A stretch of 30,585 bases of DNA from a virus (IMGVR_UViG_2728369593_000008:1-30585), one strand, 5' to 3'; positions 3,127 to 9,770 are shown, counted from the stretch's first letter. Notes: generated by a model from the sequence alone, not told the origin. Numbers and translations: made by a program.

Positions 3127-3153
3127 TTGTTAATTACTTGGGTAGCGTATTGT

Positions 3154-3594
3154 ATGACTAAAAATGCACAGCAGGTTCTTGAAGACTCTGCCCAACAGAT
3201 TTTTCCCGATTATTTTCCTGCAGATGTTCCTCCAAAAGAGTCCTTGGATGCTGAAGGGGTTTTTTATCGCTTAGCCAGAAATAATCCACCTGGGAAAGCT
3301 TGTTTTTTAAACATGAAAGAAGAAAACCCAAAAAGAATGAAAAAGTTCCAAGGGTTACAATTGAAATGCTGCTATGGTGTTTCTATGTTCATGGACGAAA
3401 CATCACTGGTAAATGTATTTAATAAATTTCCTGAAGGAATAGGTGAAAGGTTTATTGCTAAAGGCGAGTTGAATCCACAGGATGGAAGAATGCTAAAAAC
3501 AGGAGCTCCTGATTCGACTCATTTTACCATTTGGCTTTGTAAAGATGCTCGAGTTCATGAAAAATTCACCTGTATAAGAGAGGTGGTTAGATGA
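3154..3594 (+). CDS. Hypothetical protein, cargo gene A of the Q-to-holin cassette (no recognisable family)
   Basis: ORF 3127..3594 with first ATG at 3154; visibly AT-rich and rich in Lys/Asn/Phe; stop overlaps the start of the next gene (ATGA at 3591-3594). Confidence 0.55.
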   Translation: MTKNAQQVLEDSAQQIFPDYFPADVPPKESLDAEGVFYRLARNNPPGKACFLNMKEENPKRMKKFQGLQLKCCYGVSMFMDETSLVNVFNKFPEGIGERFIAKGELNPQDGRMLKTGAPDSTHFTIWLCKDARVHEKFTCIREVVR

Positions 3595-4880
3595 GCAATA
3601 TTTTTTTGGAAGATAGTGTGTTCGGCACATTATATATGCAAAAAATTTATGAGTTCTTCGAAGAGCCAAAACTTTTCTCTGTGTCTAATGAAATAAATAG
3701 CATGTTTGTTGTCTATTGGATTGGCGACGAAGAAGATTATGATAAATGGATTATCATACCGATTTCAAAAGATAGGTTGGAGCACTTCGAGCGTAAAAGA
3801 ATTGATATTAGAAGTGTTTTAGTGTATCAAGAACAAAAGCTTTGCTATCAGTTTAATATTTACTATGAAGATAATCATGTTGATGAAATAAAAATAAATG
3901 TTTCTGAGTTAAATGAGAAGATAAAAATTCCAGAACCTAACTTATATATTAGTAGTGTTCTTCCTGTATTACCTAATGGTAAAATTGGAAAGGAGGTGGA
4001 ATTCTCTACGCATGAGATTCATGTGGAGAAAACAGCAACTTCTGTGGAACCCTTGGTTTTAAAAGGCGTCTCGAAGCTTTTTGAGTGTTTTAATGATTTC
4101 TATTCATCAATATTAGCTGCATTTGATGAAAAAGATGTAATGAGTCCAGTATCTGGACGTCCTGGTTCATTTGTTCTTTCATTCAAGGCAGATAAAATGC
4201 AGCAAATTGAACCATTGCTGAAAAAACTAAATGAGCTGATTCTATCAAGAAAAGATATTATTGGTTTTGTTAAACAGAATAATATCGATGTTCAGATGTT
4301 ATCTGCTTTATTTGAAAGTGTGATAGAGACAAGTTCATGTTTTGAACTAAAAAGTAATGTGACTGATGATGTTATTCTTAGAGTCAGAAAAACTGATGCT
4401 GAGTTCTATTCTGGCACATTGATTAAAATGGCTACTCAAGTTGTTAGTAGTTATCAGGTACCGCAGGCTAACCTAATTGAACAAGTGTTTAAGATAGTTG
4501 AATTAAAATGGCAAGAGAAGCATCTGAACCTGATTAGTACTGGTCTGGATAATCGACATATATTGTATTATATTCATGCGGCCAAAATACTTGGGTTACT
4601 AAATAGTAATGGTTCTGTTTCAGCTCTTGGTCAGCAATTGGTTGAATCTGACTATGATAAGAGACTAAGAATCGCTGCACGCGGTTTTGAAACAAGTCAT
4701 TGCGGGTGGGCGTGGATTACCTGGAGTCAAGCTAAAAATCTTTCTGAGCTCGATCCACTTACAGCTGAACGATTTTTGCAAGATAGATGTATATCTCTCA
4801 GCTCCAAAACAATAAAGAGAAGGGCTTCTACTTTAAGGCAGTGGTGTGAAAAATTGCAACCTGCTTATCAGGAGCTCTGA
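3591..4880 (+). CDS. Hypothetical 429-aa protein, cargo gene B (no recognisable family)
   Basis: Long uninterrupted AT-rich ORF; GAGGTGG RBS about 6 nt upstream of the ATG; translationally coupled to gene A; followed by two hairpins. Confidence 0.65.
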   Translation: MSNIFLEDSVFGTLYMQKIYEFFEEPKLFSVSNEINSMFVVYWIGDEEDYDKWIIIPISKDRLEHFERKRIDIRSVLVYQEQKLCYQFNIYYEDNHVDEIKINVSELNEKIKIPEPNLYISSVLPVLPNGKIGKEVEFSTHEIHVEKTATSVEPLVLKGVSKLFECFNDFYSSILAAFDEKDVMSPVSGRPGSFVLSFKADKMQQIEPLLKKLNELILSRKDIIGFVKQNNIDVQMLSALFESVIETSSCFELKSNVTDDVILRVRKTDAEFYSGTLIKMATQVVSSYQVPQANLIEQVFKIVELKWQEKHLNLISTGLDNRHILYYIHAAKILGLLNSNGSVSALGQQLVESDYDKRLRIAARGFETSHCGWAWITWSQAKNLSELDPLTAERFLQDRCISLSSKTIKRRASTLRQWCEKLQPAYQEL

Positions 4881-5060: not shown

Positions 5061-5396
5061 ATGCCCCATAATCCAAACACATGGCCGGATTGGCTGGAGA
5101 TTTTCCAGAGCTGGTGGCGTGGAGATACGCCTCTTGGCGCAGTGATTATGTCGATCGTTATGGCTGGTTTGCGTATTGCTTATTTTGGTGGTGGTGGTGG
5201 CTGGAAACGAAAAACGCTCGAGATTTTGCTCTGTGGTGCTCTGACGCTGACTTTTGCATCCGCTCTTGAGTATGTCGGATGGCCTAAATCGCTTTCTGTT
5301 GCCATTGGTGGCGGCGTTGGGCTGATCGGTGTCGATGCTATTCGTGGGGCTGCAATGCGAGTAATCGGTAACAAATTTGGTAGCTCGAAGGAGTAA
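5061..5396 (+). CDS. Putative holin
   Basis: 111-aa protein with hydrophobic helices and a charged C-terminus, immediately upstream of the endolysin; GAGGTGAG RBS. Not lambda S-like in sequence. Confidence 0.6.
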   Translation: MPHNPNTWPDWLEIFQSWWRGDTPLGAVIMSIVMAGLRIAYFGGGGGWKRKTLEILLCGALTLTFASALEYVGWPKSLSVAIGGGVGLIGVDAIRGAAMRVIGNKFGSSKE

Positions 5397-5399
5397 TTT

Positions 5400-5876
5400 A
5401 TGCAGGAACTAAATCCCCAGCGTAAAGCTTTCCTAGATATGGTGGCCTGGTCAGAAGGAACGGATAACGGGCGACAACCGACACGTAACCACGGTTATGA
5501 TGTTATTGTCGGTGGTGAACTGTTTACTGATTACTCCGATCACCCTCGCAAACTTGTCACGCTAAACCCAAAACTCAAATCAACAGCAGCCGGACGTTAC
5601 CAGCTTCTTTCCCGTTGGTGGGATTCCTATCGTAAGCAGCTTGGCCTGAAAGACTTCTCTCCGAAAAGCCAAGACGCTGTGGCATTGCAGCAGATTAAAG
5701 AGCGTGGCGCTTTACCGATGATTGATCGCGGTGATATCCGTCAGGCTATCGATCGTTGCAGCAATATCTGGGCGTCGTTACCTGGTGCAGGTTATGGTCA
5801 GTATGAACATAAAATCAGTGACCTGATTTCCCGGTTTAAAGAGGCTGGTGGGGTGGTAAATGAAGTTGAGCTATAA
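5400..5876 (+). CDS. R: Endolysin, lambda R-type lytic transglycosylase
   Basis: Translation is close to the lambda R sequence as I recall it (NQRKAFLDM.AWSEGTDNGRQ.TRNHGYDVIVGGELFTDYSDHPRKLVTLNPKLKST.AGRYQLLSRWWD.YRKQLGLKDFSPKSQDAVALQQIKERGALPMIDRGDIRQAIDRCSNIWASLPGAGYGQ); GGAG RBS. Confidence 0.9.
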   Translation: MQELNPQRKAFLDMVAWSEGTDNGRQPTRNHGYDVIVGGELFTDYSDHPRKLVTLNPKLKSTAAGRYQLLSRWWDSYRKQLGLKDFSPKSQDAVALQQIKERGALPMIDRGDIRQAIDRCSNIWASLPGAGYGQYEHKISDLISRFKEAGGVVNEVEL

Positions 5877-6252
5877 GCTGGTTATCGCTGGTTTCTTCGT
5901 TACTGTCATTGGTTCTTTCATCTGGTCGGCCAACCACTACTACAGCAAATATCAGTACGAAAAGAAACGTGCTGATGAGGCTGTACGAAATGCTGAATCA
6001 GCAACTGCCATTACCAATAACGTCCTGCAATCACTGCAAATCGTCAATACAGTTCTGGAGGCTAACCAGCATGCAAAAGAGCAGATCGCACTGGAGTCAC
6101 AGAGAACCCAGGAAGATATCAAAGTGGCTGTTGCGGATGATGATTGTGCTTCACGTCCTGTTCCTGCTGCCGCTGCTGACCGGTTGCGGAAGTACGCGGA
6201 CAGTTTACGTGAACACTCCGGCGGTACCACTGCCAGCCAGCCTGACTTCTGA
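5860..6252 (+). CDS. Rz: Rz-type i-spanin
   Basis: N-terminal transmembrane anchor followed by a charged, helical periplasmic domain; start overlaps the endolysin 3' end. Confidence 0.75.
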   Translation: MKLSYKLVIAGFFVTVIGSFIWSANHYYSKYQYEKKRADEAVRNAESATAITNNVLQSLQIVNTVLEANQHAKEQIALESQRTQEDIKVAVADDDCASRPVPAAAADRLRKYADSLREHSGGTTASQPDF

Positions 6253-6388
6253 AACACCGATTCCAGTTGTACCTAGTCCACTGACATATGGTGCTAGCTT
6301 GGAACTGAATGCGAGTTTGTTATCTGCATTAGCGCAATGCAATAGAGATAAAAAGGATATTCTAAAAATAGGATATCAAAATGAATAA
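6137..6388 (+). CDS. Rz1: Rz1-type o-spanin lipoprotein (overlapped architecture)
   Basis: Begins in the +1 frame inside Rz with MMIVLHVLFLLPLLTGC (lipobox LLTGC); proline-rich mature part; extends past the Rz stop. Confidence 0.7.
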   Translation: MMIVLHVLFLLPLLTGCGSTRTVYVNTPAVPLPASLTSETPIPVVPSPLTYGASLELNASLLSALAQCNRDKKDILKIGYQNE

Positions 6389-6454
6389 ATATTTTCCGGA
6401 AAATGATTATAACTGTGCTATAAATATAATCACCAAATAATATAAAGGTGAGTT

Positions 6455-6964
6455 ATGGAAAGGTTTATAAAATCAATTGAATCTTCAATTGAAAGTGAGA
6501 ATTGGTTAGCGGCATTGTTTATGGCTCTTGCTATGCCTGATATTTGCAGGAGCGTTGAACGTCCCAAAATAGGTAAGGGTGAAACAGGGAAATGGTATAA
6601 AGATTGGGTTTCTCGTTATCTTGAAAATAAATATACATCCGGTACACATGAACAGTGTCGATTTTATGCGGATGATTTTTGGCTGTATCGTTGTTCTTGT
6701 TTACATGCTGGACAGGATCCAGAGAACAGGAAAAGAATGATGCAGTTTAATTTTACACCACCACCTAGGCAAAATTGCCAAGTGCATTTAAATCACTTAA
6801 ATGGCAAACTTCAGTTGCAAATAGATGTGTTTTGTCGAGACATGATTGAGGCAGTCAATCAATGGCGTACTGAGGTCGAGGATACGCCAGAAATTAAGGC
6901 TCGTATGGATTCTCTGATAAATATATCATTAGCATCTTTTGGAACATTCATTTCATTTGGTTAA
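6455..6964 (+). CDS. Hypothetical 169-aa protein, AT-rich moron between lysis and packaging genes (no recognisable family)
   Basis: Isolated ORF with AAAGGTGAG RBS, a candidate extended -10 (TGCTATAAA near 6416-6424) upstream and a hairpin downstream; AT-rich compared with flanking genes. Confidence 0.6.
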   Translation: MERFIKSIESSIESENWLAALFMALAMPDICRSVERPKIGKGETGKWYKDWVSRYLENKYTSGTHEQCRFYADDFWLYRCSCLHAGQDPENRKRMMQFNFTPPPRQNCQVHLNHLNGKLQLQIDVFCRDMIEAVNQWRTEVEDTPEIKARMDSLINISLASFGTFISFG

Positions 6965-6971
6965 ATATATT

Positions 6972-7015
6972 AATGAAGTGAATTTTACAGTGGGTACTAA
7001 AAGGTTCACTTCATT
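6972..7015 (+). terminator. Hairpin / putative terminator after the 6455..6964 moron
   Basis: 11-bp inverted repeat AATGAAGTGAA (6972-6982) / TTCACTTCATT (7005-7015); the loop is long, so stability is uncertain. Confidence 0.35.
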
Positions 7016-7069
7016 TAATGATTTCCCTAAAACAAATTTTTTTAGAGGAAACTATTTAGGACATTAATA

Positions 7070-7420
7070 ATGCCCCCTCGAACCCCAAAAGCCTGCCGCG
7101 TTCGCGGTTGCCGCCATACCACTACTGATCCGTCAGGCTACTGCGAAAGCCACAAAAGCGAAGGCTGGAAGCAATACAAGCCAGGTCAGTCCCGTCATCA
7201 GCGCGGTTATGGTTCGAAGTGGGACGGTATCCGCGTGCGCGTCCTGAAGCGTGACAAAGGTTTATGTCAGTTATGTCTGCGTGCTGGTGTGGTGCGTGAG
7301 GCGAAAACTGTTGACCACATCATCCCTAAAGCGCATGGCGGCACTGATGCCGACTGTAATCTGCAGAGTCTGTGCTGGCCGTGTCATAAGGCGAAGACGG
7401 CCCGTGAACGGTTGAAGTGA
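7070..7420 (+). CDS. HNH endonuclease (packaging-associated, HK97 gp74-like)
   Basis: Cys-rich N-terminus (CRVRGCRH...CESH) and HNH core (VDHIIPKAHGG...NLQSLCWPCHKAKT); sits directly upstream of the small terminase, as in HK97-like phages. Confidence 0.85.
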   Translation: MPPRTPKACRVRGCRHTTTDPSGYCESHKSEGWKQYKPGQSRHQRGYGSKWDGIRVRVLKRDKGLCQLCLRAGVVREAKTVDHIIPKAHGGTDADCNLQSLCWPCHKAKTARERLK

Positions 7421-7545
7421 TAATGATTCTCAACTGCCTGAGGGGAGGGGCGGGTCAAATCCCTGCGGCCTGACGTCTTCCGGACTGCCCGCCCCATCGT
7501 TTTTTTATACCCGCAAAAAATGAAATTTAACCAGGAGTGCCGCAT

Positions 7546-8040
7546 ATGGCTGGAACGGCGGGGCGTTCCGGGCGTCGCCCCAAGCCAACGGCGCGCAAGG
7601 CGCTGGCCGGAAACCCCGGCAAGCGAGCCCTGAACAAAGATGAACCTGTTTTTACGCCCATCAAAGGTGTTGAGCCACCGGAGTGGTTCGCAGAAGAAGA
7701 TCTCCATCTCGCCACGATCATGTGGCAACTGACAACCAAAGAACTCTGCGGTCAGGGCCTGCTGTGCGTGACTGACCTCGCGGTACTTGAGCGGTGGTGC
7801 GTGGCCTACGAGTTCTGGCGACGTGCCGTGAAAAATATTGCCAGACAGGGCAACACCATCACCGGTGCAATGGGCGGCAGGGTCAAAAACCCGGAGCTGA
7901 CCGCCAAGAAAGAACAGGAGTCCGAGATGAGCAGCACGGGGGCAATGCTCGGACTCGACCCCAGCAGCCGCCAGCGTCTGATAGGCCTGGCGGGGCAGAA
8001 GAAAGCCACTAACCCGTTTCTGAAAATCATCGAATCATGA
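7546..8040 (+). CDS. Terminase small subunit (P27 / HK97 gp1 family)
   Basis: Arg/Lys-rich N-terminus ([14 protein letters not shown]...); AGGAG RBS upstream of ATG 7546 (the ORF track begins at GTG 7537); stop overlaps the large-terminase start. Confidence 0.8.
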
Positions 8041-9770
8041 GCCGGAAATCTTACCCCAACGTAAATGCTGCCAATCAGTATGCCCGTGATGTCGTGCGGG
8101 GAAAGATTGTGGCCTGCCAGTTTGTGATTCAGGCCTGCCAGCGCCATCTTGATGACCTGATGGCGGAAAAAAGTAAGTCGTTTCGTTACCGCTTCGACAA
8201 GGACCTGGCTGAACGGGCCGCCAAATTTATTCAGCTGTTGCCGCACACCAAGGGTGAGTGGGCATTCAAAAGGATGCCCATCACGCTGGAGCCGTGGCAG
8301 CTCTTTGTGATCTGCTGCGCGTTTGGCTGGGTCAATAAAGGCTCCCGGCTGCGCCGCTTCCGTGAGGTGTATACCGAAATCCCCCGTAAGAACGGCAAAT
8401 CGGCAATCTCTGCCGGTGTCGCCCTGTATTGTTTTGCCTGTGATAACGAGTTTGGCGCGGAAGTGTATTCCGGTGCCACGACAGAGAAACAGGCGTGGGA
8501 AGTCTTTCGCCCGGCGCGACTGATGTGTAAACGCACACCCATGCTGACGGAAGCGTTCGGGATTGAGGTTAACGCCTCAAACATGAACCGTCCGGAGGAT
8601 GGCGCGCGGTTTGAACCGCTGATCGGCAACCCCGGTGATGGATCATCACCCCACTGTGCGGTGGTGGATGAATATCACGAGCACGCCACAGATGCGCTTT
8701 ACACCACGATGCTTACCGGGATGGGGGCGCGACGTCAGCCACTGATGTGGGCCATCACTACCGCCGGGTACAACATTGAGGGGCCGTGCTACGACAAACG
8801 GCGGGAAGTCATCGAGATGCTCAACGGCTCGGTACCCAACGATGAACTGTTCGGGATCATCTATACCGTTGACGAAGGTGACGACTGGACCGACCCGCAG
8901 GTGCTGGAAAAAGCCAATCCAAATATTGGCGTGTCGGTTTATCGCGAATTTTTGTTAAGTCAGCAGCAGCGTGCGAAAAATAACGCCCGTCTGGCAAACG
9001 TCTTTAAAACAAAACACCTCAATATCTGGGTGTCGGCGCGTTCGGCGTATTTCAACCTGGTGAGCTGGCAGAGCTGCGAGGATAAATCACTGACCCTTGA
9101 GCAATTCGAGGGGCAGCCGTGCATTCTGGCCTTTGACCTGGCGCGTAAACTGGATATGAACAGCATGGCGCGACTTTATACCCGCGAGATTGACGGTAAA
9201 ACGCATTACTACAGTGTGGCCCCGCGTTTCTGGGTACCGTATGACACGGTGTACAGCGTCGAGAAAAATGAAGATCGACGGACAGCCGAACGCTTTCAGA
9301 AATGGGTGGAAATGGGCGTCCTGACCGTTACCGATGGTGCAGAAGTGGATTATCGCTACATCCTCGAAGAGGCCAAAGCGGCGAACAAAATCAGCCCGGT
9401 CAGCGAGTCACCAATCGACCCCTTCGGGGCGACCGGGCTGTCACATGACCTTGCTGATGAAGACCTGAACCCCATCACTATCATCCAGAACTACACCAAC
9501 ATGTCCGACCCGATGAAAGAGCTGGAAGCAGCAATTGAATCGGGACGCTTTCATCATGACGGCAATCCCATCATGACCTGGTGTATCGGCAACGTGGTCG
9601 GCAAAAACATGCCGGGTAACGATGATGTGGTGAAACCCGTCAAAGAGCAGGCGGAAAACAAAATCGACGGTGCAGTTGCGCTGATTATGGCGGTTGGCAG
9701 AGCCATGCTGTACGAGAAAGAAGACACGCTGTCTGACCACATTGAGTCCTACGGGATCCGCTCGCTTTAA
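8037..9770 (+). CDS. Terminase large subunit (HK97-like)
   Basis: 577-aa protein with ATPase-type motifs ([19 protein letters not shown]) and a C-terminal nuclease-like region; start overlaps the small-terminase stop. Confidence 0.9.

Follow-up and report, generated by a model that had tools for sequence, protein, structure and literature searches.

A candidate stand-alone HEPN-like RNase encoded by a prophage moron of Escherichia coli and its large uncurated protein family

ORF169 is an intact open reading frame (ORF) of 169 codons (positions 6455..6964, + strand, ATG start) within an SfV/HK97-like Escherichia coli prophage. It lies in a stretch of viral DNA of 30,585 nucleotides (nt) (IMGVR_UViG_2728369593_000008:1-30585), which is referred to here as the window. 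The frame is a real gene and a self-contained piece of prophage cargo: the chance of a 169-codon open frame is ∼4e-6 by our own arithmetic (stops make up ∼7% of random triplets at ∼35% GC), and the gene is genuine because thousands of homologs exist. We propose that its product is a member of a family of stand-alone HEPN-like ribonucleases (RNases), carried as a prophage moron and serving as a putative abortive-infection effector, a proposal that we hold with about as much confidence as doubt. An earlier note on this DNA had suggested a single-gene defense or exclusion factor at this place, and our analysis makes the status of single-gene defense candidate more plausible and more specific.

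ORF169 belongs to a very widespread family of unnamed stand-alone proteins

The sole library match of ORF169 was PHROG 18591 (E, 6e-74), a group of unknown function. The earlier note had recognized no family for the protein, which is true of the curated libraries Pfam, NCBIfam, and PADLOC. An exhaustive profile search returned 2,890 representatives of 50%-identity clusters at an E value of ≤1e-3 and 1,807 at ≤1e-10, and nearly all of the 2,890 are single-domain stand-alone proteins of 160 to 200 amino acids (aa). A second search yielded 1,429 clusters at 90% identity, all unnamed or labeled "hypothetical" and none with a Pfam domain, and a search of BFVD found family members only. Using a 15-member alignment, we retrieved 80 genomic loci from more than 15 phyla, which include Proteobacteria, Firmicutes, Actinobacteria, Cyanobacteria, Bacteroidota, Chlorobi, Planctomycetota, Verrucomicrobiota, phyla of the candidate phyla radiation (CPR) and, from the archaea, a Woesearchaeote.

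Fusions are rare. The 328-aa protein P0104 joins a HEPN-like domain (residues 1 to 168) to a C-terminal TPR array, and a few members (P0038, P0081, and P0041) carry N-terminal extensions of 40 to 140 aa without a Pfam match. The family is uncurated, unnamed, missing from defense-system databases, and very widespread; its distinctive traits are the sequence R-C-x3-H, further conserved Cys and His residues, and a beta insert. An identity with DzbB (Dazbog) was also considered, with 8 of 99 members weakly matching the PADLOC model (best E, 1.2e-3), and was rejected: none of the consensus sequences matched, the model did not match ORF169 itself, and no conserved partner gene, as an adjacent DzbA would be, was found.

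Two invariant residues form an Rx4H motif in a HEPN-like fold

R-x4-H is the signature of HEPN ribonucleases, and Rx4-6H is their principal conserved sequence feature. ORF169 contains this motif as R79-x4-H84 (codons R79-C80-S81-C82-L83-H84, positions 6689..6706, + strand), which is the predicted catalytic site. Among 99 diverse members that are 25 to 56% identical to ORF169, no column other than R79 and H84 is invariant, and N16, W17, P28, D29, C31, C80, G86, H111, F126, and W137 are near-invariant. The earlier note had drawn attention to a Cys-containing peptide, CRFYADDFWLYRCSCLH, which does lie within the gene, but it had passed over the two invariant residues in it.

The AlphaFold model of ORF169 has a pLDDT (predicted local distance difference test) score of 93.6 and a pTM (predicted template modeling) score of 0.87. 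It consists of helices at residues 2 to 13, 17 to 35, 72 to 84, and 123 to 141, with a helical insert at 44 to 60. R79 and H84 are found at the C-terminal end of helix 72-84, which is followed by a loop with the conserved G86, and a short helix plus a three-stranded sheet at residues 89 to 122, with H111 inside, precede helix 4 (123-141). The conserved acidic residue of HEPN helix 2 has its counterpart in D29, which lies in helix 17-35 and is Asp in 98 of the 99 members. Judged by the order of secondary-structure elements alone, the arrangement fits the published description of HEPN domains (PMC3710099). HEPN proteins named beside the ORF169 fold are, in order, YutE, HepT SO_3166, Csm6, LsoA, AbiV, sacsin HEPN, RnlA, and Cas13h1. 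We infer both a clustering of the conserved residues in space and the geometry of a dimer. Altogether, ORF169 looks like a HEPN-type RNase.

ORF169 occupies a variable cargo slot

The backbone that hosts ORF169 is that of SfV-like prophages of E. coli and Shigella. Similarity to phages vB_EcoM-689R6 and vB_EcoM-720R4 ends in the left cassette junction (6389..6415, + strand), directly past the Rz1 stop codon (6386-6388), and backbone similarity is back at the HNH start codon (7070), after a right junction (7016..7069, + strand) that holds a second small hairpin (7022-7050). The earlier note had proposed comparing the same interval in related prophages, and this comparison revealed a variable slot. 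It is empty in vB_EcoM-720R4 and contains in vB_EcoM-689R6 a 168-aa ORF (locus L002, 3000-3506) without similarity to ORF169. In E. coli strain 998, the prophage of which is 97.5% identical to the window as far as position 6328, the slot is filled by an unrelated 184-aa ORF (locus L101, 9990-10544). Neither the 184-aa nor the 168-aa product matched Pfam or PADLOC, and both are candidates for further uncharacterized cargo.

The cassette itself (681 nt, ≥97.7% identity) was found in 19 of 5,426 complete E. coli genomes. All 19 copies are chromosomal and annotated "hypothetical protein", and the two that were inspected sit between Rz1 and HNH. ORF169 is thus present or absent among collinear phage genomes, as is characteristic of a moron. 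Its region also differs in composition from the flanking DNA, in agreement with the earlier note that it is AT-rich relative to its neighbors: GC over 6250-7000 is 0.33 to 0.38, compared to 0.46 to 0.51 in the lysis genes and 0.50 to 0.59 in the packaging genes. Together with a promoter of its own, described below, these results support the classification of ORF169 as a prophage moron, a concept reportedly put forward by Juhala et al. in 2000.

Upstream of ORF169 are the genes for a lambda-family holin (5061-5396), a GH24 endolysin (5400-5876), and Rz (5860-6252), with the embedded Rz1 ending at 6388; downstream are those for an HNH endonuclease (7070-7420), a P27-type small terminase (7537-8040), and the large terminase (8037-9770). 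The earlier note had placed ORF169 where lambda carries bor. The position at the junction between lysis and packaging genes is indeed the same, but the orientation is not, since bor is on the strand opposite to the late genes, whereas ORF169 is on the strand of the late operon. ORF169 otherwise resembles bor and other lambdoid morons in lying after Rz/Rz1 and before packaging, in being AT-rich, in having its own promoter, and in being dispensable. The products share no relationship, Bor being a lipoprotein of the outer membrane and ORF169, in which lipobox and signal peptide are both missing, a predicted soluble helical bundle.

A conserved extended -10 element precedes the gene

The sequence TGCTATAAA (6416-6424, + strand) agrees with the extended -10 consensus TGnTATAAT at 8 of 9 positions and is followed by an overlapping TATAAT (6425-6430), which arises from a 2-nt insertion specific to the allele of the window. 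A scan with -35/-10 consensus sequences called no promoter upstream of ORF169 (a -35 is missing, and the last letter of the hexamer is A), no -35 hexamer is found in 6389..6415, and the single exact TGCTATAAAT in the window is by itself no more frequent than expected by chance. The assignment of TGCTATAAA as a promoter is made because of conservation, not because of the consensus match. We aligned seven upstream regions, from the window, Citrobacter, Serratia, Escherichia sp., phage ECP1, "Bacterium BS0013", and a metagenomic lambdoid phage, and TGCTATAA was invariant in 7 of 7 loci, the proteins of which are 43 to 92% identical. The 40 nt before the ATG showed 68 to 100% identity, compared to 60 to 74% for the coding DNA of divergent pairs, and positions -90 to -41 were at a background of 38 to 56%. 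These comparisons support the prediction that TGCTATAAA, an extended -10 candidate in the earlier note, is a conserved extended -10 promoter, and at the level of sequence they provide ORF169 with the promoter of its own that is expected of a moron.

The Shine-Dalgarno sequence AAAGGTGAG (6445..6453, + strand) ends 2 nt upstream of the ATG, where the earlier note had also located the ribosome-binding site, and its GGTGA is invariant in alignment A4. This GGTGA is the 3' arm of an inverted repeat (6430-6451), which overlaps the Shine-Dalgarno sequence and has TCACC (6430-6434) as its other arm. The arms (A)TCACC/GGTGA(T) are retained with varying loops in 6 of the 7 loci (the window, L008, L013, L017, L107, and L004, which is ECP1), and a C-to-T change in two loci keeps G-U pairing. 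Although the arms are conserved, we rejected a hairpin in the 5' untranslated region (UTR) that sequesters the Shine-Dalgarno sequence for translational control, since the predicted RNA fold was no better than that of shuffled sequence (z = -0.4). A perfect 12-bp palindrome, TTTTCCGGAAAA (6393-6404, + strand), is located just past the Rz1 stop codon, ∼15 to 25 nt upstream of the -10 element, and could be an operator or a mere remnant of the junction.

A hairpin follows the gene

An AT-rich hairpin with a stem of ∼15 bp (6972-7015, + strand) begins 8 nt past the stop codon of ORF169, and the 110-nt region that contains it folds at -25.1 kcal/mol (z = -3.2). The hairpin noted earlier thus exists, but it is not a canonical terminator: it is followed by TAATGATTT instead of a T-run, and a terminator scan did not call it as intrinsic. 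It may be a weak, noncanonical terminator. Canonical intrinsic terminators follow the homologs in loci L008 and L017 at the equivalent place, and another, in L013, precedes the promoter. The layout of promoter, gene, and terminator that the earlier note had described as that of a classical moron is therefore well supported for the family, by the conserved promoter and the terminators after homologs elsewhere, and the variable slot likewise supports a moron; for the allele of the window, the promoter is supported but the terminator is uncertain. On reexamination, that note proved correct in its coordinates and composition as well as in its Shine-Dalgarno sequence and hairpin. A search of Rfam with 6200-7200 found no match to a small RNA or known RNA element.

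Homologs lack a conserved partner gene

ORF calling covered 74 of the 80 diverse loci, and the resulting ORFs were grouped by all-against-all clustering. No positionally conserved neighbor, partner, or antitoxin was detected in these 74 loci, and the sole cluster present in more than 6 loci was the family itself. The Pfam domains of the 144 immediate neighbors were heterogeneous, with no family occurring more than twice.

All the enterobacterial homologs that we examined lie between the lysis cassette and the small terminase gene and are co-oriented with both. The modules around them are unrelated, in lysis (holin_3_1, holin_8, or holin_3_3 with lysozyme, GH19, or GH108) as well as in packaging (Nu1/GpA, Terminase_2/3, or HNH plus P27 terS). 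In Arthrobacter temperate phages, the homolog is found beside integrases and oriented against the lysis genes, in SPbeta-like prophages it comes after an integrase-family gene, and in one case it is part of an island with toxin-antitoxin, SIR2, and SNF2 genes. There are 43 phage records with a homolog, and lysogeny or lambdoid genes were present in all those inspected. The homolog of phage ECP1 (L004, 4001-4471; KY979108.1, 8614-9084) is intact, shares 44% identity with ORF169, has the conserved promoter, and is unannotated in GenBank/RefSeq.

In most aligned loci the promoter is part of a portable element

In most of the seven aligned loci, the -10 belongs to an element of ∼47 nt, GGCATTACAGCAGGCATTCACTGAGTGCCTGTGATAATGCTATAAAT, the -35 region of which is inside a near-perfect 21-bp palindrome. 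One copy received a sigma-70 promoter call, with a TG upstream. The window retains only the portion with the -10, the UTR, and the Shine-Dalgarno sequence. Copies were located in L008 (4921-4973 and 5540-5591), L009, L017 (5919-5971), L096 to L100, and L103 and L104 (3001-3040), and at least 4 unrelated ORFs follow the element: the HEPN-like gene, a DUF6979 gene, one that is CoiA-nuclease-like, and an ORF of 67 aa. We found the first 40 nt of the element in 94 E. coli genomes, with sites in the lysis-terminase interval of prophages of laboratory K-12 derivatives (DH5alpha, DH10B, and NEB 5-alpha) and of Nissle 1917; we take the prophage of these K-12 derivatives to be phi80dlacZ. GGCATTACAGCAGGCATTCACTGAGTGCCTGTGATAATGCTATAAAT may mark a recombination boundary or else be an operator or promoter that is shared.

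A second cargo slot contains homologs of PD-T4-10

The slot between Q and the holin gene holds two AT-rich ORFs (3127-3594 and 3591-4880, + strand) that overlap by 4 nt, so that what had been counted as the first AT-rich moron of the window is a two-gene unit. The 155-aa product of the first ORF matched the PADLOC model PD-T4-10_A (E, 3.4e-10), and the 429-aa product of the second, which contains DUF6575 and DUF7226, matched PD-T4-10_B (E, 9.8e-8). PD-T4-10 is a validated abortive infection system of the toxin-antitoxin type that acts against T-even phages, and its two ORFs were originally described as overlapping in the same manner (PMC9519451). Because this slot has PD-T4-10 homologs, the phage lineage does place defense genes in its cargo slots.

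Within the lineage, the Q-holin slot contains the PD-T4-10-like pair (window and strain 998), a DNA methyltransferase, or an nSTAND1-like ATPase, and its contents assort independently of those of the Rz1-HNH slot. The ATPase, from E. coli 22AR0750 (L102, 4237-5457), is a 406-aa nSTAND1-like/AAA protein (Pfam nSTAND1, E of 2.8e-9; PADLOC candidate PDC-S59, E of 2e-7), and a HEPN-like gene is present in the same prophage.

Discussion

If ORF169 is a solo HEPN RNase, a plausible course of events can be outlined. In the lysogen, the conserved extended -10 of the gene itself would drive its transcription, and at induction late read-through would add to this. The product would assemble as a HEPN homodimer or a higher oligomer, with a metal-independent RNase site composed of two Rx4H motifs (R79 and H84) and lined by the conserved residues D29, C31, D74, C80, H111, and C127. 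Until an infecting phage supplies a product that activates it, the enzyme would remain latent; it would then cut tRNA or other RNA and abort the infection, as has been shown for solo HepS and Tha.

These two proteins are the closest functional precedents for ORF169. HepS is the HEPN Solo defense element of the Salmonella prophage Gifsy-1 (Nature 2026; PMC13043305), and Tha is a tail-activated HEPN antiphage system of Staphylococcus aureus prophages (PMC11087260). We found no sequence homology or close structural homology of ORF169 to Gifsy-1 HepS. Like Tha, ORF169 would be a prophage-encoded HEPN RNase effector with an RxxxxH motif and would have to avoid self-activation upon induction. However, Tha comprises 301 aa, ∼180 of which form an N-terminal region, and has Ith as its cognate inhibitor, whereas ORF169 is essentially a HEPN-like domain and has no partner. 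The family also differs from known HEPN RNases of abortive infection, toxin-antitoxin, and CRISPR systems (Anantharaman et al. 2013; PMC3710099) in having no MNT, CARF, or antitoxin partner and in having Cys after the Arg in 94% of members, and none of the hidden Markov models (HMMs) of HepT (HEPN-MNT), Csx1/Csm6, Las1, AbiV, or LsoA/RnlA detected ORF169 or its relatives.

Several results weigh against ORF169 being a HEPN defense RNase. The searches for remote homology and structure that the earlier note had called for gave a large uncurated family and a HEPN-like order of fold elements but no sequence-profile match to HEPN families. Pfam, NCBIfam, and PADLOC provided no profile link between ORF169 and any HEPN family; with Pfam and PADLOC, nothing rose above noise for the 99 members or for the consensus sequences of the family and five subfamilies; and profile searches of PDB sequences gave chance-level hits only (a metalloendopeptidase, E of 1.4; ubiquitin E2, E of 2.7). 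Likewise, no curated HMM of a HEPN family matched, including HEPN_*, Abi_2/AbiD-F, AbiV, AbiU2, AbiJ, RnlA/LsoA, HepT/DUF86, DUF2526, DUF4209, and others. Furthermore, ORF169 has Cys directly after the Arg instead of the polar N/D/H that is typical of HEPN domains, a feature that is not strictly defining (PMC3710099); position 80 is Cys in 94 of the 99 members and Asn in the other 5, which show the canonical R-N-x3-H. Many homologs outside prophages are found amid housekeeping genes with no visible enrichment of defense genes. Finally, ORF169 is co-oriented with the late operon and would thus be transcribed in lytic growth as well, so it may contribute to the lytic cycle of the phage itself.

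A broader version of our proposal, which we consider possible but doubtful, is that ORF169 is the founding member of a widespread class of minimal single-protein immune sensor-effectors of ∼170 aa, built on an atypical R-C-x3-H HEPN RNase and carried in enterobacterial prophages as a portable cassette under the control of a palindrome. Such a class would span thousands of sequence clusters in bacteria, CPR, and archaea, its cassette would also drive unrelated cargo, and redox state or a metal might gate its active site, which would be lined with Cys and His.

The co-orientation with the late genes raises an alternative that we regard as unlikely, in which a HEPN-like RNase, made mainly in lytic growth by read-through from the late promoter, serves the phage itself and not the protection of the lysogen, with host or phage RNA as its target, for example in host shutoff, RNA processing, counterdefense, or exclusion of coinfecting phages. 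It would agree with the late-operon orientation at every enterobacterial locus, with a slot that is part of the late transcription unit and, in the window, has no terminator between Rz1 and ORF169, and with the homolog in ECP1, an isolated free phage. Yet the gene is dispensable and patchy, its slot being empty or filled with unrelated ORFs in near-identical backbones and the cassette being confined to 19 of 5,426 E. coli genomes. It also has its own conserved promoter, which in L013 is preceded by a terminator; the Arthrobacter temperate phages have it beside integrases and against the lysis genes; and thousands of homologs reside in nonphage chromosomal settings.

It is rather improbable, in our estimation, that ORF169 is a non-nuclease helical bundle in which the conserved C31, C80, H84, H111, C127, D29, and D74 serve in metal or small-ligand binding, or which has another enzymatic or regulatory activity. 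The likeness to HEPN would then reflect only a shared fold, as in the noncatalytic HEPN-like domains of nucleotidyltransferases and MtlR. However, only the R and the H, at an exact spacing of four residues, are invariant, whereas C31, C80, and C127 can each be replaced (by Ala, Asn, or Gly), and published noncatalytic HEPN domains are typically without the Rx4-6H motif (PMC3710099). The independent replacement of the three Cys residues argues against an obligate metal cluster. For the same reason, an obligate Zn or disulfide cluster of C31, C80, H111, and C127 was rejected, these positions being substituted independently; metal binding could still occur.

Least probable is a selfish toxin or addiction RNase, controlled by a small RNA, a small ORF, or autoregulation, that stabilizes the prophage or cassette without defense: HEPN domains are common as toxins of toxin-antitoxin systems (PMC3710099), one homolog lies amid toxin-antitoxin modules, the inverted repeat over the Shine-Dalgarno sequence is retained in 6 of 7 loci, and the distribution is patchy and looks mobile, but no neighbor ORF is conserved in 74 loci, the 73- to 74-aa ORF upstream of some enterobacterial homologs is absent from the window, Rfam gave no match and the 5' UTR folds no better than shuffled sequence, and a toxin-antitoxin function and abortive infection are not mutually exclusive.

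Moron architecture and prophage-encoded HEPN effectors are already known kinds, and the solo HEPN reading of ORF169 would bring no conceptual surprise. It does offer a concrete defense candidate that can be tested cheaply, in view of its 169 aa and two obvious predicted catalytic residues. In addition, the analysis defines two cargo slots, Q-holin and Rz1-HNH, that assort independently in a common lineage of E. coli prophages, and GGCATTACAGCAGGCATTCACTGAGTGCCTGTGATAATGCTATAAAT could serve to locate more cargo and defense genes. If our proposal is correct, ORF169 would be the second example, after HepS, of a solo HEPN domain that suffices for both sensing and killing. A gene annotated "hypothetical protein" would then represent a new family of stand-alone HEPN defense RNases with at least 2,890 clusters at 50% identity, one that is invisible to defense-system finders because no Pfam, NCBIfam, or PADLOC model describes it.
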